From: Takakia lepidozioides
Taxonomy: Eukaryota > Plantae > Bryophyta
Length of the DNA: 64,000 nucleotides
Assembly (NCBI GenBank): GCA_030704615.1
Contig: CM060732.1
Span: forward strand, 67,456,001-67,520,000
Direction: 5' to 3'
Shown in pieces: positions 38,001 to 63,667 of the stretch (positions within the stretch are counted from its first letter, which is position 1; every line of letters begins with the position of its first letter). The notes under the pieces are model-generated. The model saw only the letters and a program-made list of their open reading frames with translations, was not told where the DNA came from and searched no databases. Made by a program: the position numbers and the translations under genes.

Positions 38001-38119
38001 AATACATTTATTTGGAATGGCAGGTAATACATGCACAGGGGTAGCATATCTAATTGCTACCGACTGAATCCGTGTCTATGAATATGGAGGTATTTGTGTC
38101 ATCATCACTGACCATAGCC

Positions 38120-40525: not shown

Positions 40526-41221
40526 TATGGCGTACGCCTCCTCGAGTCGCCATAGTCTGTTATCTCATAATCGCATGCGTGGCTCATATGCACCATGATG
40601 GCCGAACAGACGTTGAACGTTCATAGCTCGTAGTATGCAATGCCCTGTAGAGCCTCTGCAACTTTGTGTCCTCAGTGCTCTCTCTACAATATATCTACCT
40701 CTTGCGGTGTGTGCCAGTGAGCTGCATGATCATTCATGGTGAAGTCCAAAGTTGTCATTGCGCCTCTCACTGAGTACGAGAAGCTACGTGAGGCTAACAT
40801 TGCCATCGTGAAGGATGCCACGACAAAGTTGAAGCAGGACTTTGAAAGGTAAGGATCGAACAGTTCAGTGACCCAATCCTTTGACAATGCATGCATGGCT
40901 AACAATGTGATCTCTTCCCTTTTGCACGGTACATGCTTGAGGTCGATCGAGAGGGGGCGCCGTTGGTGTGAATATAGAAAAGGCTTGACAAGTGCAAGTT
41001 GAGTGTAGTATAGGGTATAGGAGTGCATTCATAGCAGTAGGCGGAAGTGAACCGCATTTGACGGGCAGCCATTGGGACAGCGGCAAGGCACTTCATCGTT
41101 TTCCAGCTCCTTTATGAACAGTAGGGTATGAGCTGCATTTGTCTTGTGTTAGTCGTTTAAGAGGGGAGATAGTCAAGTAACCTGTGGGCCGCAATGGAAG
41201 TATTTTTGCAGGATTACGGGT

Positions 41222-44200
41222 GTGAAACCGCGTCGAAAGGCACGGTCTCGTGGAGCTCCTATCAAAGATCCGGCAAGACGAAGTGCCCGACTTGTCACCA
41301 TGACTCGAACAACTGCCAAGCCCAAAGTAATTTTTGACATAGACGACGACGATCTTTACCTCCCACCACAAAAGGGAGCAGTACAAGAAGGGTCTGGGGA
41401 TTCAGCCGACTCCATGCCGGAGGACGCAGATGCAGGCACAGTGGCGCACGCAGGGAAAAAACGTGGTAGAGGCACACCGTCTCCATCTGTGAGTGCATTT
41501 TATGGGCATATTTATAGTCTCTCACCACTTATTCCGAAGGTGAGCACAACCTCATGAGTGCCGAATAGAATCATGCGGACTTCATTAGGGGCCATGATCC
41601 GGGGAGGGATTGTCTAAATACTTGGCAGATTTAATTGCGTGTCAATATTCTTCTTCTTTCTATTCTGTCTCTTCCGTGCTTTGTAGGTTTGTCCCTCATT
41701 TGCATGTTTGGTTTCGAAGGGGGTGTGCTATCATAAGCACATTCTCTGTCTAGATTCAGCACTAGGAATTTTGTCTGTCCATTTTCTGCGTGGAGGAGCT
41801 GCACCATTGCCCATGTGCATGTGGCCCCCATATTCCATAGCACTATTTACAACTTTGTAAGCAGTAGGTCTCGTATGTTGAGCACATTCCATCTTTTCTC
41901 ACAACTTTTAGGTATGCCCCTCCCTACTGCATGTTTGGTATGGATTTCAGGCAAAACCCATACATAAAAGGGGTCGGAAAAGTCTTGGGCGCACATCATT
42001 GAAGCCAATCCAATTTGGCCGATTTTCTAGCCAAGATCTGTATGATTTTTGGGTAATCAGACCTGTAGAAATCATGCGTACTGTTTATACTTTATGACAC
42101 CTTTATGTCATGATATGGTGTGGTCCTTGTAGTTGGATTTACTTGGCATTGTGTTTCATGTATGGAAACCCAGGGCAAGCAAAAACAGAAGCAGAAAAAT
42201 GCCACAGGAGTCGGCCCTCAGTCCCCCCAGGTTTTCCATACTCAGCCACCAGTACTAGGCTCTCAATATCGCTCCATGCCTCAGTACCCGGTTCCCAACC
42301 AGCATCCACCCACTGGCAATGTGGAGGGTCAGTACGCAACGGCCCCCCAACACAGTTATGCAGCTGGCCATTATGGCCCTTATGCTCCTCCTCCATATCG
42401 CCCACCTCCTCCTCCTTATGGAGGTGGCAGGCCACCTGAATATCCTCCGCCGTATGTACAGGTCCCATATGACCACTATGGATCCCCGAGTGGTTCCCAA
42501 CCACCATGGCCACCGATGGGTAGTTGGCCGAATCAACCCTTCAACGTTCCCGCACAGATGCCAGCGGTTCAACCTGCAGGGGATGTGGTTCAATCAAAGT
42601 GTGACAGAACCAATGCCTTGAGACGAGCAAATTATGTTGTGAAGGCCGCGGCATATAAAGTGAAGTAAGAAAGAGAGGCAGAAGGTCTTTCTGCAACAGT
42701 AGTTGTTGTGAACAAGGCAGGAAAACCAGTTGGTCAAAGGAGGAATGTTTGGCATGCGGCCCTCAAAGGTCACGTTCATCGTATCTATGATCCTTCTGTA
42801 GCCATCAACAATCAGCTTGATGAGATCATTGAAGAGCTCAAAGAAATCTTGGCCAAGCTACTTGAATATGTCCCACGTGACTTGGATGATATTGCGTTGC
42901 AAAACACAATAGGCACAATTATGAAGACCTGTTGCACAAGGAATGGCAGAAAGGTGGGGGGAAACCCATGGACGTGTCTGATGAGCATTGGAAGAGCCTC
43001 TCCTCCTACTGGAGTACAGAATAGTACTCCAAAGTGCAGACCCACTTGAAGACAGCAAATGCCTGCATTCAAAATCACACCAAAACGGGCCGGGGAGGGA
43101 AGGACAGCATGGAGGCACGCTTAGTAAGAACCCTCATGAGTTTTCTCACTGTACTCCTCTCAATACATTCTATGAATGCCAATCTTTAATGCTGGTTGGC
43201 TTATGGTTTAGTATTTCAAGCAATTTTGGAGCTGAGCTTTAGTATAAAATTATTTCTGTGCTGACGTGATTGTTCAATCTTGACGTTGCATTATCTTCAG
43301 TGGTTTTGTTATGGTTTTGTATGGTTGAGCCATTGAGTACAAATTGCACATTGGCTTCAGATTGTTTGTTATGTTGGGTTCATATGTAGGAAAGAGAAAC
43401 CGGGTGCCCCCCCTACGTTGGCTGATATACAAGAATACTCTGTCTCAAGGATGTCAGCTAGGAGCGATAGGCGGGTAAGTGAGACTCAACAACCATGTGC
43501 TTTCAGTACATGTGTGCCCTGTGTATTATAGCACGTCATTGTGCTCAAGTTCTCAGTGAATGATCTAAGTGTTGAAAGAATGTACTCATAAGAGTGCCAG
43601 TGTGTTGATTGACAAAACTGAGTTTGGTACCTCTAACCACTTCCTGGTTTGGACTGAGATCTGTTGGGTTTGGGTTTGTTGATTTTCACTATAAGCCAAC
43701 ATTGTATCCCTAGGACGGCCGTGTCTGGCTAGGTCTAAGTCCATCAAAGGGTTTAGTAGAGGGTTAACACATTTTACTTCAGAAGTTGCTGGGTGTGATC
43801 ATTGTATCCTGCGGACTGCATGTGTGGTAGAAGGACATGTGCTTGAATTTACTGCTTTGCTAGAACAAAAGTGGGACCAATATTTTTGTACAGGTGAACA
43901 TGTTGTACTCATGGTTGCCAGCGTTTGATGATATGTGTCTGGTTGGTGCATGATCACCCAATATGGATTGATAGGTAAGGTGCTTGATGTTGTGCTCAAA
44001 TATTGGTAGGTGGAAAAAAACTGGTTGGAACATGTTGTCTTATGCATTTCTGTCTATATGGCAGGAAGCGAGTGTAGCGTATTATGCCATAGTCGGAAAG
44101 GTGGATGCAATGGAAAAACAAGTCGAGGCTCAAGGGTATGATATGCTGGAGATGAAATCATAGATGCAGAACATGATGGACTCTCAGAAGGCAATGATGC

Positions 44201-45977
44201 TCAAATTGGGGGTTAATGTCCCCCTGGCAGGTCCAGTGACATCTAGCATGAATGGTTCTGGTGTCACTGTATCAAAAAGATTGGCATCGCGGTTTGAGAC
44301 CGTAACTGGCGCTCAATCTCAACTCTCCCCTAACCCTATCACCGATGATGGTTTGCATCTGTCCAAGCAGTTCGCCATAGGGAAGGCAGGCACTGAGACA
44401 ACAATTTCAAGTCTGCCTGCCTCTGGTACAAAGGAAGCTACTGATCATGATGCCCGTGATATGTCTAGGAAGCCTGGTACACCGGATTCAGGTATGCATG
44501 ATTCCTTGGGGAATTCACATGGGGAGGATGGGACAGATGCTACGGCATTTCAATTGGTTGTGCATCCCACTGGGGCTGATATGTTGAAGCCAGGTGAGCG
44601 TTTATAGTCTCCCCCACCTCGCAAGCGATGAAAGGCCGCAGGGCGTAGCGGCCACAGGCTTGCTAGTTTTGGATGTGAATGGATTGCTCTGTGAATCCAT
44701 TCATGTTGCTAGTGGTCCAACAACTGCTCCCAAAGGATTTGTGGGGAAGTTGTGTGGGATGAAAATGGTAGTTTTGAGACCCAGCTGTATTTCTTTTTTG
44801 CAAAAGTGTTTTGCACACTTTGAGGTGGCAGTGTGGTCTTGCTGTAAAGCTCGCAACTTCATTCCGATGGTGGACTTTATTTTCAAAGGGCACACTAATT
44901 TTATTTTCCAGTGGGATGCCCTTTACTGTGAAGAGCTTACTGACCCATTGGCTAGGGGGGCTGATGCAAAGCCCATATATTTGAAGAACCTATCAAGAGT
45001 GTGGGTAGAGTGGCCAGAATGGGGTCCTGAAGACACTCTTCTTGTTGATGACACACCAAGAAAGACATCAAACAATCCTCCATTTAGTGGGATATATCCG
45101 GAGCCATGGAAAATGCAATCATCAGGGCCAAAAGATGGCTATTTACTCGATGTGTTGTGGCCGTTCTTGGAGAGGGCAAGCAAGACTCCTAGTATTCCAC
45201 AGTTTCTGAAGTCTCAGCCTCTCTTTGGACAACAGCCCTACAATTCTGCTCAGTGTAATCGTCAGAAGGAACAACAATGTAATGTAAGTCTGGTCCACAA
45301 TTGGAATTCTTGGGTTGCTTGTGAATTGCATGAGTAGTGCGTTTATCTTGAGTGAGCTATGTAGCTAGTGTATTTCAGGTTGTAATGCATGCATGTAAAT
45401 TGTAATGGTTTGAGATATAGGGACCTATGATGAAGTGGCTCCATGTTGTCAACAAGTCAGCAGAGGAGCTGGAAAGTAGCCATCTCAAGTAGTTCTCGCA
45501 GACGCCTGAAAATCAGCTTGGTGTAAGTCCATGACCTTCTTTTCCAATTTTGCAGTGATATCCAATAATAGTTGCAATGATATCCATCCCTATTAATAGT
45601 TACAGCCCCCCTCCCGGTACATAAGTACTATAATGCTTGGACCTCCGGAGTCTAGCGTGCATGGTATTTTCACTCATTGTTTTTGCTAGTGGGTGTTGGG
45701 ATGACAGTTTAAGGTGGGAGACCAAGTTCGGCTCCTTAACGTGATGTCCAAATGGACAAAGGTTGGATCAGGGATTATATGTTCTCTGCAAGACTGCAAG
45801 GTAAGTGAGGGCTACCCTGATGTGCCAACTGAGTATGCGGCTATATACATCAAAGAGGCATACATCACTAATGCTCCTTTACCATATCTCAACGATGTTA
45901 AGAAACAGACTGTGTTGGGGGATGTGGTAGGAAGCACCACACTTTGGAGTTTGAAGCTACTGCGACATGAGGTTTAG
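41222..45977 (+). pseudogene. CACTA TnpA-like multi-exon gene with an embedded FCP1-like phosphatase domain
   Basis: Basic N-terminal piece (41222+), Pro/Tyr-rich block (42175-42660), 'VVNKAGKPVGQRRNVW' TnpA-like block (42700-43120), coiled-coil exon (~44065-44200, contains a stop) and C-terminal Tnp1/En/Spm-like domain GDQVRLLN..VGSGII...APLPY...VLGDVVGSTTLW (45714-45977). Exon structure only partly resolved. Confidence 0.6.
44640..45290 (+). CDS. FCP1/NIF (CTD-phosphatase-like) HAD domain inside the CACTA element
   Basis: LLVLDVNGLL (HAD motif I, DxNG variant), VLRPSCISFLQKCFAHFEVAVWS (motif II), IFQWD..C, KPIYLKNLSRVW (motif III K), TLLVDDTPRK..NPP (motif IV). Open frame within ORF 44594-45337. 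Confidence 0.85.
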
Positions 45978-47176
45978 GAAGTTCTACTGCTTTGTTTGTC
46001 AATAAAGCCCTTACTTCTAGCAGTATCTGTTGAATCTAGTTTTTTCCAGGTAAGTATTTAGCGACATTGTGATTGAACAATTGCACATATTTTGTGAATT
46101 TATATACAAAGACTGGTTCGAACACCACATGAATGTGTGTGATGTGATGTGATGATCCTGTTTCTATGGATGGCATATTTGATTGTAGTTGTCTTTCAGA
46201 CTGTATGATATTGGTGCTTTTGTCAGTCTATGCAACAGGGTTGGTGGTAGAATCAGTCTTTGTCACACTTTGCAACTGCCAGCAGGGTTGGGGGTCCACT
46301 CTTTGGTCATTGGAAGATTAATGCAAGCTCTCTTTCCCTGCAGAGGGGGTGTGTCTTGATATAGAGGGCCAATTGCTTTGGCAATTGCCGTGCTTATGAG
46401 AACTCCACATGGTTTGTTTAAATTTCATATTAATTTACTTCAATTTACTAGTTAAATTAGTCATTTGAAATTGAATAATATATCACAAATTTCAAAATCT
46501 ACATGACCTACACGTGTCATTCACACATACTCCAACAAGACCACGTGGCATCTGTAGTGTTGTAGTGATATAGTCACACCCATAGTAATGTAGTCATACA
46601 TGTATTCAGGAATTGTGCCACATGTCATCCTCAGCGATGTACTGAGTAGTTATGTAGTCATCAGTGTAGTCACACAAAGTAGTCATGTAGTTATAAAGTT
46701 ACGCCTACATCACTATATTCCATCCCACGATTTGGAAAAATGTCATAGCAGAGGGATTACGTGTGTCACGCAGACAACTATCCATGTAGGCGGACTTCTG
46801 TAGTAATGTAGTTATCATGTTAGTAATGACTACACGCCGTGTAGTCGCGTAGTCCACTGTACCATATGGTCACACATGTCAAATCCCAAGGATCCCACGT
46901 GTCACGCACAAGCCTCTCCATGTAGGCGCAATGATGTAGTGATGTAGTCATAACTTACAGTCGTGTAGTTATTTCTGTTATTACTACATCACCAAACCTT
47001 GCATCACTATCCCATGCCACGTCCTTAGTGACGACCATGACTTCGCACTTATCACTCCGTAGTCATGGTAGAACTGACTTCGTGTTTGTCACTGTAGAGT
47101 GAGGTAGTCGTAAAAGCACTTATCACTGCAAATGCAGTGATATCCATAGTCATAAAAACGTCAATCTGTAATAGTG

Positions 47177-47791
47177 CAAGCAAACAGGAACAGAGGCAAA
47201 AGGTTCTAGAGATGGGGACAAGTCTGCCAAGAGCTCTGAGAATAGCGATGAAGCAGATGAACCTGAAGTGCACTACCTTTGACAAGGTGAAAGAACTCAT
47301 GTCATTCCAGAAGGTAAACTCTCAGGAGGTTATGAGGGACATGCTCGTCTCTGGAGGGCGTCTGGACATCCCACTATGCCGGATGATATCTATGTTTGTT
47401 GTCCGTCATCCTCTTTCCCATGACATTACAAAATTGGAAACTGATTTCGTGCATGGATACAGACTCGTGCACAAGTTTTTTATGTGTCACTGACGGATAC
47501 AAATGGGAAGAGCACATTAGTGTCTCCTGAGATCACAGATACCTGGGATGAGTGTTGGAAGGATGTTAATGAGGAGTTCGAGCTGGGCCTCATGATGGGA
47601 AGAAACACCCAGCAATTCTGTAACCACATGTTCTACGTCTGGGATGGCAACCACCGATTGCTGGCATGGATGGGATACATTCAGAAACATCATGCGAAAG
47701 ACAAAGACAAGCATGTTGATGTAGAAGCAATGGTTTTGGATCCTGGAAACGACATCGCTAGGCTTCTTACAGCTATGCCCAACGTGAACAA
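47177..47791 (+). pseudogene. ParB/sulfiredoxin-like domain exon, frameshifted
   Basis: DIPLCRMISMFVVRHPLSHDITKLETDFVHGYR-(frameshift ~47462)-..VFYVSLTD...W...W...F...MFYVWDGNHRLLAW. DGNHR is at 47643-47657. Ends at an AA|GTAAGT donor. Confidence 0.65.
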
Positions 47792-48429
47792 GTAAGTCAT
47801 CCTAGAGACTCCATTGCCTCTCTAATGTCTTGCTAATCCCACCAAAAACAATGTTTACCAATGCATTGTTTCGGGGGCTGCTATTTCATGAGCGGCATGA
47901 GCATGAGCGGAAAAAAAAAAGCATGAGCAGACCATTGCGAGTCCACGGAAATAGGGTTAGGAGGCACGGAAATAGGGTCATGTGAAGTTGGAATGTGGCA
48001 CCAGTGGACTTGTAATGCAACATTTTATTGCAAATTTTGTGGCAAGCCACGTCTATACAAGTGTGTTCTAACTGTCATAGCCGGAATGGGCACTACTCTC
48101 CTACACCCTCCGAGGAACTTGCCCCACCTTCTTCCTCATCCCCCTCATCCCTCTCATCCTCCGAGCTCTGTGATGCATCAGTTCCACTATGCCTCTCAAA
48201 AATCCCGTCCTCTCCTTGGGGGACTGTCCACCTCACCTCCTGGGAATCTTTTGCGTCTTCTCCCCCACTTTCCTCAGCAGAATCCAAGACAAATCTACGA
48301 GCCCGACGGGCTCTAATAGCTGCTGCCTCCTCCCTCATCTTCATTTTCTTGAGGCTTGCCTCTGTCGTGCGCATACATATCGCTACACAACTACATCGCT
48401 GTCCAAAACCACACAACACATGTGCACAC

Positions 48430-48545
48430 CACACACTAGTATACCACTAGTCTACCACTAGTCCAGCCACTAGTCCAACCACTAGGCTACAACTAGTCAG
48501 TCACTAGGCTGCCACTACGCTGCCCACTATGGCAATCACTAGTCC
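48430..48545. repeat. Short tandem CCACTAG(T) repeats (~12-bp period) at the integrase truncation point
   Basis: ACACTAGT ATACCACTAGT CTACCACTAGT CCAGCCACTAGT CCAACCACTAGG ... CACTAGTCC. Confidence 0.8.
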
Positions 48546-50698
48546 ACACAATTCCCTTGGTCCGTGAGTACCTCAGCTGGAGCACCAAATCGGCTAAGCA
48601 CACGATCCAAGAATGCATACGCAGCCCCCTCACTAGCCTTGTCAGGCAATGGAACCAACTCAATCCACTTGGAGAAGTGCTCCACCATCACCAACACATA
48701 TCTGTGGTGGCGCATAGTCAGTGGCAACGGTCCTGCGAAGTCAAGACTCCACCTGTAGCCCAATCCCATGATAGGTAAAGGATGCAACTGTGGTGTAGGG
48801 GCGTTGAATGAAGCACGCACCCTGTCACACACCATGCACCTAGCCACAAACTGTTGCACCTCTGTATGCATACCACGCCACCAATACTGCCCCTGCAGTA
48901 AACTGTGAGTGCGTCGCACTCCAAAATGCCCCAACTCCTCATGGGCATGCCGCACTAACCGTGCACGCTGTGTGGGGTGAGGCACAATCCTCACCCGACC
49001 ATCCTCCCACACTCGAAGTAGGTGTATCCCCTCCCACTTGAACCTCTTGGCTCGTTGCAGGATCCGATCCCTCTCCCTGGCAGTCACAATGGCTGCCGTG
49101 TCTCCCGTGCGGAGGTAGTCCAACACAGCCGAATCCTCATGTATATCTCTGGCACCACCTAGCTCATCACTAGCCTCAGGGTCCTCAGACACTCCGTCTA
49201 CAGTCATCCCTGTTGTAGGTCCAATCTGACCTCCCGATGCCAAGATACACAAAAATGCAGATGCGTGCCATCCCGGCACCATCTCCTCGTCCGTCTCACC
49301 ATGCCACCGAGCTCCAGTGTCATCCTGCTGGCTCATGCATGGATTGCGACTCAATCCATCCGCATCCCGATTGACCAAACCCGGTCGATGCACAACCTGA
49401 AAGTCATACTCCTGGAGTATAAGTGCCCACCGTGCAAGCTTCCCCGTAAGCTTGTCTGACTCCATCAACCACTTGAGTGGCTGGTGATCCGTGACAAGGG
49501 TGAAAAGATTGCCGTATAGATAGCACCTGAAGTGTGCCACGGCCCACACTGCAGCTAAGCACTCTCCCTCATATGAGCTGTACTTAGCCTCTGCAGCGTT
49601 GTTCGAGCGGCTAGCGTAAGCCACTACAAACTCTCTTCCCTCATCATCCACCTGTGTGAGCACCGCTCCAAGCCCCAGCATGCTCCAATCCGTATGCAGC
49701 TGAAAGGGACGCCCCCTGATAGGTCGTCTCAAGATAGGCGCCGAGGTCAACCTCGCCTTGAGCTCTTGAAAAGCTCGTTCCTGCTCATCTTCCCACTGCC
49801 ACTCCTGGTCCATCTTGGTCAGCTTGGTTAGAGCCTTTGCAATGGTACTAAATCCCTTGACAAACCGTCTATAATAGTTTGCCAACCCCATGAAAGCTCG
49901 AACTCGGCTCACATCCGTGGGGCGTGGAATTTGTGCAATGGCCTCTACCTTAGTCTGCTGTACCCCCAATCCTCCAGGATATATCATGTGACCCAGATAC
50001 TCAATCTGGTTGTGGAAAAACTTGCACTTCCCCGGATGCAACTTCAATCCGTGCGCTCTCAAGCGCTCCAATACCACCTGAAGGTGTCTCTCATGCTCCT
50101 CCATCGTAACACTAAAGATGATGATGTCATCTATGTAGCACCGAGCAAAGTCCACCCCTGCTAGAATCCTATCCATGACTCTCTGAAACTCTGCAGGAGC
50201 ATTCTTAAGCCCAAATGGTAAGAACCGCCACTGATATAGGCAATCCTTGCCGTGCTCATTGATCCCCCAGAATGCCGTCTTCTGCTTGTCCGCCTCCTTG
50301 ATTGGCAACTGGTGATATCCGGATCGTAAATCCAAAGTGCTAAAGGCCTTAGCATGCCCGATGGCATCAAAGATCTCCTCTGGTGTTGGCATGGCATACT
50401 TATCGGACTTGGTCTGACGATTTACAGGCCGGTAATCACCGCACATACGTCTCTCCGTCCAATTGCCATAGACATCCTTCTTGGCTGGCATCACTGTGGC
50501 TGAAGCATACTCTCCACCAGAGAGCTCCACCAAACCTGCCTCCGAGAGATCTTGAGTCCTCATCTGAATCAAAGACCTCTCCATGTCACTGTATCTATAG
50601 GGTCTCCGAAAGATTGGCGTGTCAGTGGCCAACTCAATACGGATCTCTTGACCCTTCAGTGCTCCCAAGTCCTTCAAACTGAAGGCAAAGCAATTCAT
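48539..50698 (-). CDS. Ty3/Gypsy pol: reverse transcriptase, RNase H, integrase (core truncated)
   Basis: 719-aa open frame: RMCGDYRPVN, FSTLDLRSGYHQ, LPFGLKNAPAEFQR, YIDD, YLGH. RNase H: LHTDWS..GLGAVL, YEGECLA, TDHQPL, ADGLSR. Integrase: HHCC (HAHEELGH...CMVC) and WSLDFAGP...VLTDQG, ending before the catalytic E. Confidence 0.96.
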   Translation of the reverse strand: MNCFAFSLKDLGALKGQEIRIELATDTPIFRRPYRYSDMERSLIQMRTQDLSEAGLVELSGGEYASATVMPAKKDVYGNWTERRMCGDYRPVNRQTKSDKYAMPTPEEIFDAIGHAKAFSTLDLRSGYHQLPIKEADKQKTAFWGINEHGKDCLYQWRFLPFGLKNAPAEFQRVMDRILAGVDFARCYIDDIIIFSVTMEEHERHLQVVLERLRAHGLKLHPGKCKFFHNQIEYLGHMIYPGGLGVQQTKVEAIAQIPRPTDVSRVRAFMGLANYYRRFVKGFSTIAKALTKLTKMDQEWQWEDEQERAFQELKARLTSAPILRRPIRGRPFQLHTDWSMLGLGAVLTQVDDEGREFVVAYASRSNNAAEAKYSSYEGECLAAVWAVAHFRCYLYGNLFTLVTDHQPLKWLMESDKLTGKLARWALILQEYDFQVVHRPGLVNRDADGLSRNPCMSQQDDTGARWHGETDEEMVPGWHASAFLCILASGGQIGPTTGMTVDGVSEDPEASDELGGARDIHEDSAVLDYLRTGDTAAIVTARERDRILQRAKRFKWEGIHLLRVWEDGRVRIVPHPTQRARLVRHAHEELGHFGVRRTHSLLQGQYWWRGMHTEVQQFVARCMVCDRVRASFNAPTPQLHPLPIMGLGYRWSLDFAGPLPLTMRHHRYVLVMVEHFSKWIELVPLPDKASEGAAYAFLDRVLSRFGAPAEVLTDQGNCVD

Positions 50699-51114
50699 GT
50701 AAGCCCTCAGGAACCGCCGTATACGTCGTCTCTCTCCTCCGGTGACAATGGGTCCAATGTCAGGCTCCCAATTGTCCTCCGTAACTACAACCTTAAGTCC
50801 AGTGGGCTTAGAGGTAGAGGACGCGTCCCGTGGTTGCTATGCTGCAACCTCTTGAGCAGTACTCCCTACCTGCTCAGTCAATGACAAGGCATCATCCTGC
50901 CCCATCATCTCATCCTTGAGGACCTCCTCAACTCGAGAAGAATCCCCAACCTCATCCATCACAGCCGCCTTGGCTGCCAACTCCCTCTGAACCTCGAGCA
51001 CCTCCCACGTGTGCCATGGATGCATGCACCCCGTGGTCCTCATATGCTCGCCCCACTCACTGCCTGTACCGTCTCGGTAGGCAGAGAGACCATTGAGGGA
51101 AGTGTATTCCGCAT

Positions 51115-52103
51115 TCTGCGTTGCTCAGCTAGAGCCAAGCTGATAATCCAGGTCAAGCAATTGAGATCCATTGCTTGCCCCAACACTTGACGACGTGATG
51201 CCTCAGAAAGAGACGACACTGCCGTGGTACCAGTGGTAAAACCCATTGCCCGCTCACGCTCGTCAGCATTAGGCTCCACTAACTGCTGCAACTGAGCATC
51301 CCACAGGAGGCCAGGTCCACTATCCCGGAAAGCATGCGATCCTGGGAAGCTGAGCAGTGTAGGTAATGCTGCTCGTGGTTGACCCACCTTGTTGACCACT
51401 GCCAAAGGCGAACGGTCATCGTGTCTCACACGTTGAGACTGCCTCCCTGTGTCCAGAATGTTATCCACTGTGAGATGTGCTGGCCGCTGCACCCCATCAA
51501 ATGCACGCTTGAGCAGTGCGGGTGGCATCATGTTAGTCCACCATAGCCGTGGACGATGAGCCCGTGACCCCACTGTAGCTGCATCCAGCAACACTGCTGA
51601 CCCAAGCCACGGACCGGACTTGATGCACACTGGCCATCACCCTGGCCCGAGAATTGCCCATCAGTGGCACATTCTCCAAGATGTATGCTGGAGATACAGC
51701 TTGATGAAGCTGCAAGTGGCGCAAAACCCGCACCATCTCCCAAAACAGACCCGACCTCGAGTCTCGCAATCCATTGCCATGCCCGGCTGATGAATGCCCT
51801 TGGCAGGGCCAACCTGCCACTACCAGATCAATGGAGCCAACCCGCTCCAAATCCTGCGCCCCCAGCAACGAATGTTCTGCTGGCAAGGCCTGCTGATATC
51901 CCGAATTGCAGACACAGACAACAACTCAGGGTACTTCTGCACCAACTGAGCAACAGTCGAAGTGAAACTCGCTCGTGCAGTCTCATCCCTCTCCACATAC
52001 AGGTAACGCCGAACTCTTACACCTGCCGTAACACAGCAGCCAATCCGGTGCTGATCCCGCCAAACAGTCCAGAAGACAAATGCCTTCATCCGGAGACTGC
52101 CAC
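51115..52103 (-). CDS. Cytosine-5 DNA methyltransferase domain (DNMT3-like) within Gypsy pol, split by single-base frameshifts
   Basis: Reconstruction: ICLLD(L)FGGISTG (motif I), YLYVERD (II), IDLVVAGWPCQG (IV, catalytic PC ~51808-51803), GLRDSRSGLFWE (V), YILENV (VI), LDAATVG (VII), AHRPRLWWTN (VIII), ERERAMGF (IX), RRQVLGQAMD (X). No in-frame stops in the reconstructed path. Confidence 0.93.
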
Positions 52104-52469
52104 ACATAGTGTGGTGTCCAATGGAGACAATTGAGGTGGTCCTGGTGCAATCTCCACACTCTCCTCCTCTCCTGACGGTACAAAAGCCTCCACCCAGGCT
52201 TGTTGCACCCGTCGATCAGCATCCCGCTGCAAAATCCTTGCTCGTGCCCCACAATGGAGTCTGAGCAACCATGGTAGGCAACTCCGCCATACCATACATG
52301 TCATCCTGCTCTCCCGAAGTGGGACATCCTCTGAATGAGCATTGCCCCAAGCAACTCTCTAGGCCACCTCACTGCCGCTGTGAAGCTCTAGTGTCGCATC
52401 TTGCCTCGCTGGGCAACCGCAACTCTCCTATGAACGTCACAGGGAGCTGCACACGCCGGCCCCTCCCCT

Positions 52470-52800
52470 GGACTGCCATGCAGGCCTATAGGAAGCTGAC
52501 TCCTCCCAAAAATCCAGGGTGAAGCCAATGGGGTACAACACTGCCCCACCAACCAGGACATCGTTGAGACTGCGTCTGTCACACATTTCCTTGGCTCGCA
52601 TCACTGAGCCATCTGTAGGTGATCCGGCCGTAGTCTGATAGCCAACTCATGCCGTGTCATGCCCGCGCGCCTGCTCCGATCCTCCCAGAGACGTCTGTAT
52701 CTGGAAAGGACAAGGCTCCATATCCGCCTCCGTGAGGCCCAAGCCTGCAATAGCAGCTCTATGCCTAGCATCAGTGGCTGAGCTCCCCGAGTCCAACACA
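52470..52800 (-). pseudogene. Retroviral-type aspartic protease, frameshifted
   Basis: VLDSG-AQPLMLG (DSG ~52793-52785) and downstream ..VTDAVS..DVLVGG..LYPIGF..LDFWEE. Confidence 0.75.
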
Positions 52801-53699
52801 CTCGCAGTGGCCGGTACCTATCTTGCTTGCCGGTCCACTCAAACAGAAAATGCCATCCTGGGTGTCTAACATGACAACTCCAGGTGTCACCATGGCGCGC
52901 TCAATGGCTGGCCTAGCTGGCAGCTCCATCACCTGGCAGCTGCGCTTGCCATGGCCGCCGTGGCAGTCTTAACCTCAAATCCAAGGATCCCTCGGCACTA
53001 CTACCTCCTACTATCTCCGTAGAAGATGATTCCCTCCCCACTCTCACAGAGTGTAGCTGCCACCTGACACCTCAGCTGTCTTACCCCCAGCGTCGCAATC
53101 ATGGTAGCCGAGAACAATGGAGCCTGGCCACAGATGTGGCCGCTCCTAGCAGCACACTAGCTGCCGTAGCCTTGGCAACCACTAGGTAGTGGTGCTACCC
53201 GTGTAGCTCTCCCAATGGCATAGTAACCTCCGCCTCGGTAACAGTCGGGCGAGAACTAGGTGCCATGGATGGCGTCGACACTGTCTCCGCCAATGTGAAT
53301 GACTGAGGAAGCCTATCCTGACGCTTGCCTCCCCACGCTGTGGATCCAACTCACCTCTGCACCTCGCGGCTCAGGACTCGTGTTGCTCCTCGAGTCACGG
53401 CTGCAGCAGACTCCACCTGCACTAGTGGTAGTGCTGCTCCACACATGAATCCCATGCCTCCCCTATCTCCTCCCTCAGGAGCAGGAGGTGGACCATCCGG
53501 CCTTAGAGCCGGTACCACCTGAGCTGTAGCCTGGCAGCGATCCTCTGCTCTAGCTGCTGAAGCCGGTTGGCCATGCCTTGGTCAACACCCTGACCTCCGT
53601 GTCCTTGGCCACGTTGAGCTTGCCCTTGGCCTCGTGGCTGGCCACCTCGTCCCCTCTGGGCTGCTCCACCTCGCCCCCGCCACCATTGTTCCCTTGGAA

Positions 53700-54770
53700 C
53701 TGGCCTGGGCGCAACTCAGGATGCAAACCATAACACTGAGCCTCTCCATGCCCGTGTTTGCCACAATGCCCACACTGTAACTGTGCAGGCTGTGCATTGT
53801 GCCGGCCCTTTGCCTCCTCTGGACAATCCTTCTTGACATGGGGTCCTCCACATGTCCAGCACACCACATCCGCCCGTTGTTTGGCCAGCAAATGAAGGGG
53901 AGACCCCTGCATCTGAGGTCCTTTCTGCCCTTCCCGAGCTTCACCTGAGCCCCTTTGTTGCCTTGAGCACGTTGAGGTAGTGGTTGGCTAGGAGCACCAC
54001 TACCCCGTGGTTCTCCTTAGCAAATCCCCCATGACCACTCGTTCCTCCCCATGTTGAGCTCTATCCGCTCTGCCAGCAAAAACACATTGCTAAGTGGGTT
54101 GGGCCGCTGGTAGGGAGTTGCATCCCGCACCCTTCTCCTAAGCTCCTTGTCCAATATCCCATACCAGAATTGGACTGCCTGAGCTTCCGTAACCCCTTGG
54201 GTTACATTTATCAAGCGCCTCATGCGAGTGAAAGCCTCCCTCAAGCTCTCGGTCGGCTTCCGTTGGAACTCTTGCAAGCTCCGCAACTTCTCTGTCCTCA
54301 CCCCTTGGTAGTTCCCTCTCAACTCTTCGAAAACTCCCACAACAGGTTGAAGCAGGCACGGGAGCTAGTGCTGGTGCGGTAGTGGCTTGGGTGGACGTCG
54401 TAGCTACTGTACCACCAGTCCCACTGCTGCTTGCTGAAGCTTGCTGGTGCAGCGGCAGGTGTAGCCACTGCCCTCGTGGCTCTAGTGCCCCTAGTGATGG
54501 AGACATAGTCGGGTGATCAGTACATCCTCCACTCCTCGATCTCAACCTCATGCCCCCGCCTGAACTCATGGTAATCATCCATAGGCGGCCCCTCAAGGTG
54601 CTGAAACAGCCCCTTCCATGCCATGAAAAGGCGTAAATAGTTGTGGATTGCGCATTTGCTGCAAATCACACCACTATCAAACTCTTGGATAAAATCATCC
54701 AACTCGATGGTGCCCACCGCCCCAGAGTACCTTCGTGGCCCCTTGGTAGCTCCATACATCTCCTCCATTG
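53700..54770 (-). pseudogene. Retrotransposon gag with two CCHC zinc knuckles, frameshifted
   Basis: PRRYSGAVGTIELDDFIQEFD, LFQHLEGPP, LRSLQEFQRKPTESLREAFTRMRRL...QFWYGILDKELRRRVRD. Zinc knuckles CWTCGGPHVKKDC and CGHCGKHGHGEAQC. Confidence 0.85.
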
Positions 54771-55689
54771 TGTCCCACAACAATGGCAAAGAAAAAACTT
54801 GCACTCGGTATGAGTCCTCCTGATTCACAATCCGAATCAGAACCTTCCGTAGAAGACACAGGAGGTGAAGGTGGCCTAAACCGCACACCTCGTCTCGTTT
54901 ACCCACTAGTATCGCTAGTGCTCGAACCGGCACTATCCCAGCAACTAGTGGCACCTCCGTGTTGACACTCAACCGTTCATGAACATGTCCCTAACCCCCT
55001 CTCCACAAGGTAAACGGGTAGAGAACCTGTTGCGGCTTATGGTTTGGAATACTAAGTTCCTAACATAGCCTAACACCTGTACCTGCATCCACGCCAGCAC
55101 TCCTATGGTTGGCTGGTCATCACCTCCAACCTCACCACAAGAGAAACAATGATGGTCTGGTTGGTCATCACCCAGTCTCACCATCGACAGCGCATGCTAG
55201 GACTGGCCGGTGATCAAATCCGGACAATCACCTATAAAACCAAGCGCCCACCCAAACTAGCATTGCGCACAGTCAGCATGCAGGTATGGAGGGGATCCAA
55301 ACACAAGAATCAGATCTACAACTCCCCCACACAAAACAACTCCCGTGTTGCTCCTGCAAGGACACCCCAGCCCAAACCCGACTGACTCTTGCCTCCACCT
55401 ACGGAAAGGTCTTGGCCTAATGAGAAGGTGGAAACTACGAGGAAGAGAAGCTAAGCAATGCCTAACCCCAGCATGCTCTCATCCCACACTCTGCCTCTCC
55501 TCTCTACCTCACTTGCATGACCATGGGAATATCATGAAGAGACTCCTCAAACCGCCCTCCCGAGCTTCAAAATTCGGCCTTCCAGACCACATGGCAGTCC
55601 TTAGGCAGTCCACCAGTGCCTCCACGAGTCAGCACAGGCCGTCCACAGGTCAACACGGGCCACCACAGACCAGCACGGCCCCACAGCTC

Positions 55690-56935
55690 ACTGGTCACAG
55701 CCGTCACAGTCCCACAGGCCACTGGGCACAGCCTGTCGCAGCCCCTCACAGCCTGTCATAGCCTCAAAGGCCTCAAGCACGGCCTGTCACAGCCCCTCAC
55801 AGCCCCTCACACCCCAAAGCCTGGGCACGGCCTGTCATAGCCCCTCACAGCCCGTCACAGCCCCAAGGCCTCAGGCACGGCCTGTCACAGCCCTCACAGC
55901 CCCTCACAGCCCAAAGGCCATGGGCACGGCCTGTCACAGCCCCTCACAGCCCGTCACAACCCCAAAGGCCTCAGGCACGGCCTGTTCACACCCTCACAGC
56001 CCGTCACAGCCCCAAAGGCCATGGGCACGGCCTGTCACAGCCCTCCAGCCCGTCACAGCCCCAAAGGCCATGGGCACGGCCTTTCACAGCCCCTCACAGC
56101 CTCAAAGGCCTCAGGCACGGCCTGTCACAGCCCCTCACAGCCCGTCACAGCCCCAAAGGCCTCAGGCACGGCCCTGTCACAGCCCCTCACAGCCGTCACA
56201 AGCCCCCAAGGCCATGGGCACGGCCTGTCACAGCCCCTCACAGCCCGTCACAGCCTCAAAGGCCTCAGGCACGGCCTGTCACAGCCCCTCACAGCCCGTC
56301 ACAGCCCCAAAGGCCATGGGCACAGTCTGTCACAGCTCGCCACACCTGTCACAGCCCCACGGGGCACAGGGCACAGCCTGTCACACCATCACAGCCCATC
56401 ACACTTGCCACACCTGTCACAGCCCGTCACAGCCCCACAGGCCTCAGGGCAACAGCCTGTCACACCCCGCACAGCCCGTCACAGCCCCAAAGGCCACTGG
56501 GCACAGCCTTTCACAGCCTGACACAGCCCGTCACAGCCCACAGGCACAGGGCACAGCCTGTCACAGCCCATCACAGCCCATCACAGCCTGTCACAGCTTG
56601 CCACAGCCTGTCACAGCCCGTCACAGCCCACAGGCCAGAGGGCACAGCCTGTCACAGCCCATCACAGCCCTTCATAGCTCCACAGGCACAGGCACAGCTG
56701 TCACAGCCCATCACAGCCCATCACAGCCTATCACAGCTTTGCCACAGCCCATCACAGCCCGTCACAGCTCGCCACAGCCTGACACAGCCCGTCACAGCCT
56801 GTCACAGCTTGCCACATCCATCACAGCCCGTCACAGCCCGTCACAGCTCGCCACAGCCTGACACAGCCCGTCACAGGCCCACAGGGCACAGGGCACATCC
56901 TTCACAGCTTGCCACAGCCTGTCACAGCCCCACAC
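55690..56935. repeat. CACAGCC-based minisatellite (10-bp units in a ~61-bp higher-order repeat) upstream of gag
   Basis: Dozens of TCACAGCC(C/T)(G/C/A) units. The higher-order unit GGCACGGCCTGTCACAGCCCCTCACAGCCCGTCACAGCCCCAAAGGCC(ATG/TCA) dominates 55780-56330. Confidence 0.95.
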
Positions 56936-59091
56936 ATGGCCGCTCTGGCAGTTTAGCCATTTCTCCATGGGTTTAGCCACGCCAAGCTAGGTTTGTGTCT
57001 CTTGGACTCTAGGCTTCTTTCCACCGAGCTATGGTGGCTGTGAGGAATCAGCAAGGTATCCTTGCTCTTTCGGCTCCCACACACCACCATAGTAGCCTAA
57101 GCCATGAGGTGGTTGCCACAAACCAGCCTTCTTTCTCACTTAGCCTCCCCAAACACGCCACTAAACTCAATGGCAAATAACCAAGCCCTGCTGGTTCCCA
57201 GCCCTTGTGAGCACTCATTCAAGCACTCTCATTGGCCATAACATCTGTCTTAGAGCCTATTCCAGCTCTCTACATCTGTTGCTTCAAGAGTTGCGCTCCC
57301 TTCAAGCTGAAGTTTTGAAACCCCAACTCACATAGGCCCTACAAGTGCTTTTCTTTCACTCCACGTGGAAACCAGCCCTAGACCTTCCGTTCTAGTTCTC
57401 TAAGGCTTGAAAACAAGAGCCTCAATGGGCTGAAGGCATGCTCCACACATGCCCACTCTCACCATAAGAGAATCAGCTCCTTGCTTCATTTCTTGCACCC
57501 ACAAACCTGAAAATACAAGCTTCAGCAGGCTGAAAGCATGCTCTACATGCCCTACAGGGAAACCAGCCCGCCCCTCCTTCCTTCCTTGCACTCCCACACC
57601 TAAAAGTGCAAGCCTTCACCAGGCTGATAGCATGCTCCACACATACATTGCCCTCACATAAGGGAAGTCAGCCCTTCCCTCTTCCTTGCTTGCCCTCCAA
57701 GCTTGAAGATGGAAGCTTCAATGAGCTGAATACATGCTCCACACATCAACCTCTTCACACAAGAGATATCAGCCCCCTATCTGGCTCCTTGGCTCCTTGA
57801 TGCTCTCTAAGACAAGACTAAGCACTCCACAGCCTTTGCCAAGCTCCTGAAACCCTAAGGCTTACATTTTCCAGCCACAAGACACTTCTCTTGTGGTGCA
57901 AGAGCTCTTCTTCCAAGCTCTGAAACCCCAGGTGCACATTCCATGGCCTTGCCGCACCTCTTAGCTCCTGTTCCAGCCCTGCTCTTGCCATGACAAGAGC
58001 CCTCTCAATGCTGAAGCTCGAGATTGGAACCCAATCTCACCATACTCCACAAAGTGCCTTGATTTGCCCCAAGCCAAATCAGCCCTTTCGCTTGGTCCTG
58101 CAATCCTTCACACAATGAAGCTCGCATTCCCCGGTCCAGTTCTCAGCTTTGCCACCAAGCACTATAACCTGCTCTTGACTGGTCCTCTTCCCAATCGTGC
58201 TTGCTCATGCATGTACACAATCTGAAACCATCAAGGGGCTCTGGATTACCTGCAGCATGGTGCTTCATCTCTGAAGCTGAAGATCGAATGCCAAGGTCTA
58301 CCACCTTGTAACCCACATCGCCTCCGCTTCTAACAACCAGAGCTCCATGGTGCTCCTTGCATAACAACTTGGTTTCTCTCATCTCAAGCAAAACCACAAG
58401 TGCTACAACTAACTCGTATCTAGCACTCATAGATACGAGCTCATCTTTCTCGAGTGATAAGAGGAAGGATACAAGCACAAGCTCATGCGAGCTCACAAAG
58501 CTGACATAAACTCATGCATATATAACCTCATCACTCAAATACAAGTCAAGCCAAGTGCACCCCACCCATGGGGAATCCACACTACGGCGCCATAGCTAGG
58601 CGGTGAGGCTCAACTCGAGAAGATGAGCCTCCCTCCCACACGCTTGCCGTGAAGATAAACCACTCCAGGGCCTAAATCGTGCCTTGACCCCTGGATTGAC
58701 ACTTGGGCCAATCCAAATGTCAATATGTAAAATCGGCTATTTCCTAGCTAGTTTCACACTAGTGGTAAAATAACTTGACACCTCGTCTAAAATCTGATGT
58801 ACACGACTAGGTTCGGAACACCTCGTAATGGACACCGAAGCAAGCCGGGCAGCATAGGAGGATGTACTCCCTTTCTGGACTAGGCATGGAAATCCCCCTG
58901 GCAAAAAAAGCACGTTCCTCCTGCCCATGAACTCCGGTGTAGACGTCCCTCCGGCAGTACTTGGCATCCTACAATAAGAACAATCCACTTCAAGAATGTC
59001 AATACCAGCACCAACCAGAAAGGTTTTCAATGAAATAAAGAGCGGAGGGAGGTGCCTCACGAAATCTGGAAGCAACTTACAATGCGACCAC

Positions 59092-62000
59092 TCACTCGTA
59101 AACCGGGGGCTCCTCGGCCTCGATCCCAACTTCCTCCCCCTGCTCCTTCTCGGATTTTTCCTCATCCTCCGAGGATGCCTCTTCCTCTTTCAGCAGACAT
59201 TCAGCCGCTGCAAGTTCGAGTTGTGGAGGCAGTATCTGGCTCAAAGGCGAACACATGCCTGTCGGACAACGTCCCTGCCACATTGAAGCACATGAGGAAC
59301 AAAGCGGGCGGTTAATAGCTTGCGGCATGCAATTGCAATCGGGCCAGGGACAAACTGAGCACGTGAAGGCTTACCCGTGCCGCATGTGAGGTCCAGAATC
59401 CGCCCTTGGACATCTGAGCACGTCTCCGATGGTTTTTGGATGAAAGTAGGCTCCGGGTCCGGCTGTACCGCCACGGTTTGCCTGTCTTTGTGTCCTTCGG
59501 CATACTGGAGTGGGGCACATAGTTGTAGAGGACATCGTAGGTTACAGGGTCCACAGCGGCATCAACAAGACGACCGTCGTTGCGGAATTTGAACGTAGAC
59601 CCTCTCTTCAGCTATGCCTCAAACACCATGTCTGCACATCCAACAAAGAAGGGATCAACTCCAGGGTCACTTAACATACACCACAATATGAAGTGAATGC
59701 AATAGATTAATAACTTACACTTTGGCCCTCTGTTCGCAACCCCTGTGTACTGATGCAGAACCATTTTCTGAGGAGGACCGGGTGACACTTTTTGGTGTCC
59801 ACCTTGCCACCGCATTCTCTGTGGTCTTCCTCTCGTGGCAAGGACAACCATACATCCACCGTCATCCAGAAGCATCCCCGCCAGCCCAACCCGACTTTCC
59901 AGTAGTCCCTCAGTAAACCTGTTCCAGGGTGGCACCCATCCAGGCCCTCCAGCAGCTCCCCATCTGGAATGTTGAGGAGAATCATATCGGCAAGCTCTCT
60001 CCACCTCAAAACCCCCCCCCCCCCCCGAGTGCTCTTGCAATCCGTGCTCACCGCCGTGAAGAATTCCATCATGGCTTCAAAACCAGGGGTGTCTTTAGGC
60101 TCTGTAACCGCCAGCCCTCTTCTTGGCTTTCCCTTCTGCTCCGCCAGAGACTTGCTGTGTGCCACCTTCTTCGCCCTGGCAGCGAGAGAGCGTCAAGGAA
60201 GCTCTCATTGACGCATTGGATGATGGTTGGAGGTTCTAGCTTTGGCCTGTGCGTAAACGTCACCGCCGAATACCGCCGTGTAGGCTCGCCCTCAAATGCC
60301 AACCACTCCGAACTGACTTGGGAACCCGGACGACCGTGACTGGGTAGGAGCAACAGCAGTCACAGGACCTTGAACAAAGTCGTCGTCCGAGTCACTCTCT
60401 TGGTTCCCCTCCTACGCCTCCTCCGATGCCCTATGGTTTTCTTCTTTTTGGGTGTTACTGCACTCACCTGTTTCCTTGTCCTTTTCCTTTGGCCTTTACT
60501 CTTCTCATGCAATTTCTCCTGAATTCCTGCCTGAGCAAGCTCTGCCGCTTCCTGGAGTTTGCAAGCGCTTTTACCTCTTTTGCACCCAACGGAGGCAGCG
60601 GAGCCCGGTTTCGTCGGAATTCAGCATCCAGCTTCAATTGAAACTCGGATGGGTCGAGCGAGCCGGGCGGAAGGTCCACATACCAAGGGCAATCACGCAA
60701 ATGTTCCAGATGCCACTCCTTCACAATATCGTCATTGTACATGGAGTCAGCCCCAGGGTTCCTCCATGCCAGGAAGAATGGTGGCTCGAAGACAGATGAC
60801 CTTTCTCAAAAGGGAGAACTTGCAGTACCTGCATTCATGAAAAACACAATGAGGCCCTGAAATGCATATTCGGCACCATTTTCCCCAGGTTGGGGCAGAT
60901 GTGAGTGGGCCTAGAAATGGAAAATGGCGCCGAATTTCGGTTTTCGGTGACTGCCACCCTAGGGACTTAGCCATCTTGGGAGCCCTAAACTGGAAATTCC
61001 GGCGCCATTTTTCCCGGTTTGGCCCGAAGATGGCTAAGTCCAGAACCGCATAGGGCTAGAACTGGAAAAATGGCGCCGAATTTCCAATTCAGGGCCAGCC
61101 ACCCTAGGGACTTAGCCGAAAATGGCTACGTCCCTGAACTGCAATAGGGCCTAGAATTGGAAAAATGGCCGAATTTCCAGTTCGGGGCTAGCCAGTCTAG
61201 GGACTTAGCCCGAAAATGGCTAAGTCCCTGAACGCAATAGGGCCTAGAACTAGAAATGGCGCCGAATTTCCAGTCCGGGCCAGCCACCCTAGGGACTTAG
61301 CCCGAAAATGGCTAAGTTCCTGAACGGCAATAGGGCCTGGAACTGGAAAATGGCGCCCGAATTTCCAGTTCAGTGCCAGTCAGTCTAGGGACTTAGCCCT
61401 TTTTCGGAGCCTGACTGGAATTCGGCGCCATTTTCCCTAACACCACATGAGCCTCTAACATCTGAAATGCAAGGACTTGAAAGAAAGGCAGCGCGTATGT
61501 ACCTGTACAGAAGGCGCATTGCTGCTTGTGTCCGCGTTCGGCTGGTCGGTGAACTCGTGCTCCGGCGAGCATCTGCTATCTCCCGAAAAAAGAGGTTGGT
61601 TTGTAAGTAGAAAGTACCTCGTCACATAGTCCGCGTAGGCTCTCTGCTGCAGAGATATCTCCATCTTGAACAACCTTGCCTCTTCCTGAAAAAATACAAT
61701 GAATCCCCCCTACTTGAGTAGAAGCCCCAAACGAGTGGTGGCGTGGGAAGTACCTGAAACCACCATGTCATGCGGTTCATCCACATGTCGAATGTGTGGT
61801 CAGAGAGTTGTCCGGTTTTGGGGAAGCTCCACATGTCCCTGGTACTTTGGGAACCATTCCAGATTTGGAGCCACCGGGTCTGTCCAACCACCCAGCATAT
61901 TCGTAAGCGCCAAACACCCACAAAAGGGTTGTTGTCCACCACAATTTGGTTAAGAATGTATCACCTTTTCTGTTGCATCCACACAGGTGTGGCTAGACGA

Positions 62001-62100
62001 TGGAGCTTCTCCAATGTCATCGTGGGCTTCAGAGCGGAGAGTAGTGCTTCCCCACCTCCCCCAGAAAGTCGGCACCAAGGGCGGGATCAGCTATGGCCAC
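59092..62100 (-). pseudogene. Multi-exon pseudogene ending in a beta-class amino (N4-cytosine/N6-adenine) DNA methyltransferase-like domain
   Basis: ADMILLNIPDG (~59992-59960, motif-IV-like) then VPPWN..LL......LLDDGG. DVLYNY...GKPWR..R, then FIQ...TCSDVQGRILDLTCGTG (motif I, ~59400-59375) spliced across a 100-nt GT-AG intron to TLSDRHVFAFEPD (motif II), followed by an acidic tail. Stop at 59614-59612 plus frameshifts. Upstream Trp-rich exons at ~60830-60470 and ~62100-61503. Confidence 0.65.
60905..61436. repeat. ~93-bp tandem repeat of paired hairpins, in a probable intron
   Basis: CTAGGGACTTAGCC recurs at ~60959, 61104, 61197, 61289 and 61385. Units contain a GGGACTTAGCC..GGCTAAGTCCC inverted repeat and TGGAAAATGGCGCCGAATTTCCA. 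Confidence 0.9.
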
Positions 62101-62169
62101 GTACTTTACCAATCCGACTTGTACTTTATGCGGGCCCTCACCTCCGCAGCTTTGACATCCTTTGAGGGG

Positions 62170-63660: not shown

Positions 63661-63667
63661 GGCGGCT

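Follow-up and report, generated by a model that had tools for sequence, protein, structure and literature searches.

A DNMT3-like methyltransferase set apart by a conserved, putatively leaky stop codon in a multicopy Ty3/Gypsy-type retroelement of Takakia lepidozioides

The window analysed here, a 64,000-nucleotide stretch of contig CM060732.1 of Takakia lepidozioides, contains on its minus strand a retroelement that carries gag, an aspartic protease (PR), a DNMT3-like C5 cytosine methyltransferase (DNMT), reverse transcriptase (RT), RNase H (RH) and part of an integrase (IN) (Table 1). Gag starts at 54768 and has zinc knuckles at 53861-53823 (CX2CX3HX4C) and 53774-53733 (CX2CX4HX4C). The DNMT motifs follow at 52064 (FGGISTG), 51814 (GWPCQG), 51685 (YILENV), 51561 (AHRPRLWW), 51261 (ERERAMGF) and 51183 (LGQAM), with a Pfam match to PF00145 (E 4.7e-13) on one 130-residue fragment. 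Downstream lie YIDD of the RT at 50137, TDWS of the RNase H at 49693, and the HHCC and first two catalytic aspartates of the integrase at 48943-48554; the Pfam matches to these three domains all fall within the 765-codon frame 50836-48539. An earlier sequence-only reading had named the two CCHC knuckles of gag, the DSG of the protease, the DNMT motifs, YIDD, RNase H and integrase, and every one of them was located on the minus strand in the order it gave.

Loose ends of other copies at 48362 predicted both termini of the retroelement. Each predicted terminal string has a single occurrence in the window (58767-58780 and 58785-58796), and CCTC lies between the two. Because both termini were located and the same CCTC stands at either end, we place the retroelement at 48363-58780, a larger extent than the 48539..54770 of the sequence-only reading; the host repeat that received it resumes at 58785. 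A single target duplication therefore encloses everything from gag to integrase, which speaks against a nested DNMT. Paired long terminal repeats (LTRs) were looked for in the window copy and not found, and there is no long repeat between its ends. No coding similarity was found between the ~4-kb leader and the relative loci. Inside the leader, a tandem array of ~10- and 50-bp CACAGCC units extends over ~55690-56940.

Table 1. Coordinates of the retroelement and its parts in the window
Feature	Position	Strand	Basis
Whole retroelement copy, 5'-TGTCAAG ... CACGACA-3'	48363..58780, 10,418 bp	(-)	single exact matches to termini predicted from other copies
Target-site duplication CCTC, 5' side of retroelement	58781..58784	.	
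Target-site duplication CCTC, 3' side of retroelement	48359..48362	.	
5' A terminus and ~4-kb leader of retroelement	54769..58780	(-)	holds the tandem array at ~55690-56940
gag, capsid-like region and two zinc knuckles, frame-broken	53550..54768	(-)	tblastn against Marchantia P0004, 53-70% identity; motifs
Aspartic protease, LDSG at 52796-52785, broken	52526..52941	(-)	Marchantia alignment and motif
DNMT3-like C5 cytosine methyltransferase, motifs I-X unpermuted, three frames	51043..52080	(-)	Pfam, alignment, motifs; family profile and fold closest to DNMT3A
In-frame stop, TAG CAA CCA context (UAG-CAR-YYA), predicted readthrough site	50831..50839	(-)	sequence and motif definition of PMC3159437
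Open 765-codon frame: RT, RNase H, N-terminal integrase part (match ends ~48551)	48539..50836	(-)	Pfam, alignment
Remnant of 3' end, finishing in B-repeat terminus GATATGTATGCGCACGACA	48363..48550	(-)	matches B ends of relatives L047, L070, L044, L064

Judged by its reading frames, the window copy is decayed and non-functional as assembled. The sequence-only reading had described a full-length DNMT within a collinear, intronless element on one strand. All motifs I-X are present and both the order and the lack of introns hold, but the DNMT is spread over three reading frames, the integrase is half-deleted, and alignment against a Marchantia relative reveals at least 8 frame changes plus internal stops in gag-PR-DNMT. 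Beyond ~48551, past the second catalytic aspartate, the integrase no longer aligns, and this copy lacks the remainder of the core as well as the C-terminus and PHD finger that its relatives have. Assembly error may be the source of part of the frame decay. The breaks are concentrated in 50840-54768 (at least 8 in 3.9 kb), where one-base gaps predominate, and none was seen in the 2.3-kb RT-RH-IN frame 48539-50836.

The window element almost certainly belongs to a multicopy, DNMT-bearing family of Ty3/Gypsy type. Its DNMT piece matched 52/6293 candidate proteins, including many Marchantia models, Calypogeia, three Sphagnum species and Monoraphidium. A wider profile matched 90/7990 and added Closterium and Chromochloris, with element proteins reaching 130-614 bits and fish DNMT3 68; one protein of this set derives from Tetradesmus transcripts. 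Moreover, 60 loci share the same domain order, so that the DNMT is a trait of the family, as the sequence-only reading had supposed, and not unique to the window copy. At E<=1e-30 a full HMMER search returned 574 clusters, 150 of which were examined, and the family profile also matched Klebsormidium GAQ93235.1, which has the order gag-PR-DNMT. Sorting 266 proteins by the place of the DNMT put 152 between RNase H and integrase (the chlorophyte-type order) and 49 after the protease or before the RT, with 65 too short to place. No vascular plant, hornwort, Physcomitrium or Ceratodon names occurred among the matches; since most matches are unnamed and repeats are often masked, absence from these groups is not established. 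The search of viral contigs yielded no relatives (47 pattern matches, 0 confirmed). In public run X1, 70,470 small contigs fell on 47600-55600 and covered DNMT and RT alike; their depth sums are evidence of multiple copies rather than a copy number, and the run is possibly the window's own source. A 2754-base contig from a separate study (run X7) runs from RT to DNMT motif I. Within the wider family, the proteins P0248, P0182/P0184/P0187, P0218, P0200 and P0204 include a Closterium model in which the DNMT is joined to a Copia-type RT (PF07727), some chlorophyte-type elements with additional G-patch, chromo or Tudor-like domains, and one entry filed under a bacterial metagenome-assembled genome, probably through contamination.

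The congruence of RT and DNMT trees, put forward as a check by the sequence-only reading, was borne out: path lengths correlate at r=0.71 across 72 elements (permutation maximum 0.18), these trees leaving out L053, L054, L078, P0329 and P0383, whose RT is too short or absent, and single-domain proteins. The correlation is 0.95 within the 17 PR-DNMT-RT elements and 0.55 within the 55 RH-DNMT-IN elements, and each domain order forms one side of a branch in both trees. In a 40-row DNMT tree with fish DNMT3 as outgroup, the window joins Marchantia, Calypogeia and Sphagnum (support 100) within an 18-row group (96), and the Klebsormidium, Closterium and chlorophyte groups fall outside it, the root being unsure. 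Marchantia sequences are nearer to the Sphagnum family than the window sequence is, a pattern suggestive of old parallel lineages or horizontal transfer. The host exon at 5161-5778, from a proteinaceous RNase P gene, matches Sphagnum at 69-70%, Ceratodon at 65-66%, Physcomitrium at 61-64% and liverworts at 59-61% (best 120 of 258 matches) and is sister to other mosses in a 23-row tree (support 91/90). On this one exon, the host is likely an early-branching moss. The land-plant lineage proposed by the sequence-only reading thus stands as regards a host that groups with mosses and the bryophyte relatives, but the lineage is wider and includes Klebsormidium, Closterium and chlorophytes.

By sequence and by fold, the methyltransferase is closest to DNMT3A/B. 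The family profile hit DNMT3A best in the PDB (5.5e-19), then DNMT3B/C, followed by DRM2 (1e-9 to 2e-7) and HhaI (2e-5), and a structure model of the natural copy L001 (pLDDT 79) matched the fold of DNMT3A with E 2e-17. Motifs I-X are unpermuted, and the catalytic Cys (PC) and EN/ENV are kept across the range of element DNMTs. Divergence between families (pN 0.20-0.41 against pS 0.68-0.87) and a dN/dS of 0.17-0.21 in the 3/14 between-family pairs with unsaturated dS indicate that the element DNMT is under purifying selection between families; the loss of PC/ENV with neutral evolution, contemplated in the sequence-only reading, did not arise. The DNMT of the family is probably enzymatically active.

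At the junction between DNMT and RT the window reads GCA TAG CAA CCA, with the TAG at 50839-50837 in frame with the RT. The DNMT, which the sequence-only reading had placed between protease and RT, is thus set apart by a conserved stop and does not belong to a continuous Pol. We surveyed this junction in 80 metagenome loci and the window. The 60 loci that hold DNMT then RT are closed by a stop in every case (60/60), none being open from DNMT through RT, and 51/60 have an in-frame TAG/TAA-CAR-YY 195-216 bases ahead of the RT anchor. UAG-CAR-YYA is the readthrough consensus of tobacco mosaic virus (TMV) (PMC3159437). It is complete in the window, L010/L018/L022, L053, L054 and L078, with CAR-YY in the large family. 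The background is ~1%: CARYY follows 373/35,094 TAG/TAA in the loci and 4/420 premature stops. The divergent contexts CAA CCA, CAA CTA, CAG TTA and CAA TCA encode QP, QL, QL and QS and all fit CAR-YYA, so that the nucleotides are kept though the downstream codons differ, between families that are near synonymous saturation. Complete proteins of the first open reading frame (ORF1) share their end residue with loci (P0036 with L054, Sphagnum P0032 with L007); for Marchantia, Calypogeia and Klebsormidium, stop context and ends were inferred from protein ends, not genomic DNA. RNA structure prediction 3′ of the stop gave z -1.97, with 10/200 shuffles equally good, and no structure is claimed.

Taken together, these data indicate that the UAG-CAR-YY(A) stop is probably leaky and that occasional readthrough would yield the RT part. 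Retroelements need a Gag to Pol ratio of ~20:1, and readthrough is the route for some (PMC2194720). We infer that the DNMT is produced alongside Gag and protease and outnumbers RT and integrase. No RNA runs carrying the element were listed among public sequencing runs, which has no bearing on expression. In the Klebsormidium group, proteins P0363, P0371/P0441 and P0365/P0438 terminate directly after the DNMT. This suggests a stop or frameshift there too, though the 2018 paper on K. nitens (de Mendoza et al., PMC5890265) describes one ORF.

The ends also depart from those of ordinary Ty3/Gypsy elements. Long relative loci are laid out A-coding-B-A-B, where A is ~340 bases and starts TGTCA, B is ~115 bases with GACA at its end, and the second A follows B after a two-base spacer that is mostly GC. 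In Sphagnum-like copies the B/A junction is the palindrome GACA-GC-TGTC. The same junction follows the PHD finger in the chlorophyte-type locus L066, in whose contig no second B was found, and loose ends of other copies of the window family also show a B-GC-A junction. Among the relatives, ~8 insertions have the long form A-coding-B-GC-A-B and 8-9 stop at the first B; the window copy has A...B only, without the second A-B. The 4-bp target duplication is exact in 6/7 insertions with both ends visible and has one mismatch in the seventh. No TGG, as expected of a tRNA primer site, follows the first A in the 4 loci examined (L047, L070, L044 and L064). The order PR-RT-RNase H-integrase with gypsy-type domains is that of Ty3/Gypsy, as are the TG...CA termini with a short target-site duplication, and two full identical LTRs with a tRNA primer-binding site were not found; in place of the paired LTRs expected by the sequence-only reading, the relatives have split repeats. 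A PHD finger (PF00628) follows the integrase in most long relatives and a chromodomain (PF00385) in 1/90. We take these PHD fingers to resemble readers of unmethylated H3K4. Split repeats are a feature of DIRS-type elements, and retroviral integrases cut palindromic circle junctions. By analogy, the cDNA may be circular or redundant and be opened at the GACA-GC-TGTC junction; short forms would also result if the two B copies recombined once the element had inserted.

We hypothesise, with moderate confidence, that a Gag-protease-DNMT3 first frame ending in a leaky stop supplies abundant DNMT that likely methylates new cDNA. The first reading frame would yield Gag, protease and the DNMT3-like enzyme and end at UAG-CAR-YY(A), and low-frequency readthrough would add RT, RNase H, integrase and the PHD finger. 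Readthrough would thereby keep the DNMT at a Gag-like surplus relative to RT and integrase, and the DNMT, released by the element protease, would be abundant in the particle. We lean slightly towards the element's own cDNA as the target. The cDNA would pass through a terminally redundant or circular form and the integrase would cut the palindromic GACA-GC-TGTC junction, which would account for the long form as well as for the short A-coding-B form; this integration route is put forward tentatively. With cDNA methylation and PHD-guided integration, a new copy would arrive already marked like host DNA. The broadest version of the proposal is a lineage with one DNMT3 that predates the chlorophyte/streptophyte split, free of tRNA primers, self-methylating and with circular or redundant cDNA opened at CA-GC-TG, in which bryophyte elements shifted to a TMV-type leaky stop, capsid-like DNMT levels and pre-methylated integration. 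As a whole we regard this as rather unlikely, though, if true, the host genome could acquire de novo methylation through bursts of the family.

Several observations weigh against this account. On the side of the stop, 9/60 loci have no intact in-frame motif (2 indel-shifted, 2 with one transition, 5 lacking it), and the 60 loci fall into just 7 nucleotide families, of which one accounts for 51, so that the weight rests on the divergent families. The largest family reads CAA-CCC, which differs from the TMV consensus in its final base, and has an ATG after it. DNMT and RT are in one frame in relatives P0387, P0392, P0430 and P0435, and a Gag-level dose of DNMT is therefore not required everywhere. 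On the side of the enzyme, GWEC replaces GWPC in many chlorophyte-type proteins, and within-family pN/pS is 0.51 for DNMT against 0.26 for RT, a weaker constraint on DNMT that is confounded by recurrent stops (51/55 DNMT copies and 37/37 RT copies kept). CG observed/expected is 0.49-0.58 in the element and 0.51 in the window; the two levels are equal and show no trace of additional self-methylation. In yeast the Klebsormidium enzyme produced no methylation, a result its authors call inconclusive (PMC5890265). Moreover, the trees are quick ones (FastTree) with long-branch warnings and are rooted only on fish DNMT3.

The silent Klebsormidium enzyme and the lack of extra CG loss also favour a reading in which the conserved DNMT acts mainly elsewhere: it might act on host chromatin where the element inserts, target the element's RNA, or serve the particle by binding DNA or as a structural component. 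In chlorophyte-type elements the DNMT adjoins integrase-PHD, which suits action at the target site. We nevertheless consider this reading fairly unlikely, since element DNMTs throughout the range retain the catalytic Cys and EN motif, the bryophyte-type DNMT is encoded ahead of the stop with Gag, at a distance from the integrase, and related DIRS-borne DNMT3 enzymes methylate CG in yeast (PMC5890265, as far as its consulted text goes). The stop itself might be bypassed in another way, with RT-RH-IN made by splicing (the AG of TAG serving as acceptor), by reinitiation or from an internal promoter rather than by readthrough. The Sphagnum-like family does have a T-rich run ahead of the TAG and an ATG three codons past it, Marchantia gene models P0002, P0003 and P0016 bridge the stop, and a junction promoter was found in Candida Tca2 where readthrough had been expected (PMC2194720). 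However, the T-run and ATG are missing in L053, L054, L078, L010, L018 and the window, where CAR-YYA is kept with different amino acids; the RT is in frame with the stop; and the stop-bridging Marchantia models are predictions only. Such a route is in our view improbable.

The origin of the DNMT can also be read in more than one way. Chlorophyte and streptophyte Gypsy elements might have acquired a DNMT separately, two positions reflecting two captures, and the domain order does divide cleanly into two groups on both trees. Against this, both groups have in common the distinctive C-terminal half of the DNMT (130-614 bits, as above), the integrase-PHD and the GACA-GC-TGTC junction, and one move of the DNMT domain would explain the two orders. 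We give separate acquisition a small probability. A one-off capture, a nested insertion or an assembly chimera of a host DNMT3 with a Gypsy copy might be suspected from the window alone, where the DNMT half is full of breaks and the RT half is without any. It is refuted by the family-wide occurrence, with the same intronless domain order in 60 loci and many named proteins, by the single target duplication around the whole element and by the agreement of RT and DNMT trees, and its probability is negligible.

The core concept is already published. De Mendoza et al. (2018) described KnitGypsy-Dnmt3 of Klebsormidium nitens and placed its acquisition in the K. nitens lineage; the self-methylation hypothesis, the DNMT3 type and the A-coding-B-A-B layout all appear in the consulted text (PMC5890265). 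Like the moss family, KnitGypsy-Dnmt3 has Gypsy domains, an intronless DNMT3-type domain under purifying selection and A-coding-B-A-B repeats, a layout found here in 8 insertions among the relatives. GAQ93235.1 of K. nitens falls in the same DNMT tree, and its identity with KnitGypsy is assumed from its domain order. According to the 2018 paper and its peer-review file, the DNMT of KnitGypsy-Dnmt3 lies in one ORF with the RT, whereas the moss family has an in-frame stop between them and a land-plant host. Given a stop ahead of the RT in 60/60 loci, we class the moss family as a variant of the KnitGypsy-Dnmt3 lineage and not as the same family. The TG...CA ends, 4-bp duplication, junction palindrome and PHD finger belong to the moss family or its relatives and are not in the KnitGypsy-Dnmt3 text consulted. 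KnitGypsy-Dnmt3 therefore looks like one branch of a green-plant-wide lineage, because relatives occur in Marchantia, Calypogeia, Sphagnum, Closterium, Klebsormidium and chlorophytes. In their consulted text, a 2025 paper and a 2026 preprint say only 'streptophytes' of the 2018 elements, and their supplementary trees may include bryophyte copies. No paper was found on land-plant or chlorophyte members, the Marchantia gene ids, the readthrough site or the junction, though supplements and closed papers may hold more.

Other retrotransposons also carry cytosine methyltransferases. SymbioDIRS-Dnmt3, in which the repeats are split as well, and SymbioLINE-Dnmt are of tyrosine recombinase or LINE classes (PMC5890265), whereas the moss family has a DDE integrase (rve) with 4-bp duplications and no tyrosine recombinase of DIRS type. 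The EpiLTRs of Cymbomonas and Euglena carry DNMT4-sister DNMTs with DAM and a chromodomain, as the consulted part of the preprint describes them (bioRxiv 10.64898/2026.05.21.726589). Stop-codon recoding is known from MuLV gag-pol and SIRE1 pol-env (PMC3159437, PMC2194720), and the TMV-type UAG-CAR-YYA, as in the moss family, is an in-frame UAG ahead of the polymerase part (PMC3159437). Unlike the TMV, MuLV and SIRE1 sites described in those sources, the predicted stop of the moss family follows protease plus an accessory enzyme and lies between DNMT and RT. Chlamyvir and Tcn1 (REXdb, PMC6317226) are algal/moss Ty3/Gypsy elements that likewise place a chromatin reader after the integrase, and Tcn1 also has no tRNA primer site; in the moss-family relatives, however, the reader is a PHD finger in place of the chromodomain of chromoviruses and the ends are split repeats. 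The consulted text of the REXdb paper mentions neither PHD nor methyltransferase. Among host genes, PpDNMT3b has the same unpermuted DNMT3-type domain in bryophytes, but it acts in de novo CG/CHH methylation, while the element domain is intronless and embedded with gag-PR (PMC6453930, in the part consulted).

What had been described as specific to one alga becomes a lineage that extends over green plants, in which the enzyme occupies two positions. Moreover, the conserved leaky-stop context predicts the amount of enzyme and the junction palindrome predicts an unusual integration route. The question left by the 2018 study, namely what benefit a retrotransposon draws from its own DNMT, becomes testable in the genetic model Marchantia, whose annotation holds long gag-PR-DNMT frames (Mp_4g09160, Mp_8g17980). 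Element DNMT genes can also lead to overcounting of DNMTs in bryophyte and algal genomes and, if derepressed, could confound studies of methylation mutants.

Elsewhere in the window, the host genes comprise the proteinaceous RNase P at 5161-9054 and an ABC-transporter ATPase exon at 11243-11749 (-). A CACTA-type transposon spans 36559-47176, with inverted arms at 36559-36650 and 47085-47176, a Tnp2 transposase at 38120-39739 and an intronless NIF-phosphatase-like frame at 44588-45337 (PF03031, E 9e-15). The repeat that received the retroelement holds a short frame at 47445-47795 (+) with no Pfam match, whose DGNHR motif we presume to be ParB-like. A direct duplication (22149-22825 and 23741-24415, 98-99% identity) has a spacing of ~1.59 kb, and 63668-63992 repeats 21662-21984 at 95%. 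Lastly, arrays of a ~95-bp unit at 60900-63700 contain palindromic GGAAATTCGGCGCCG cores and resemble the subterminal repeats of transposons.

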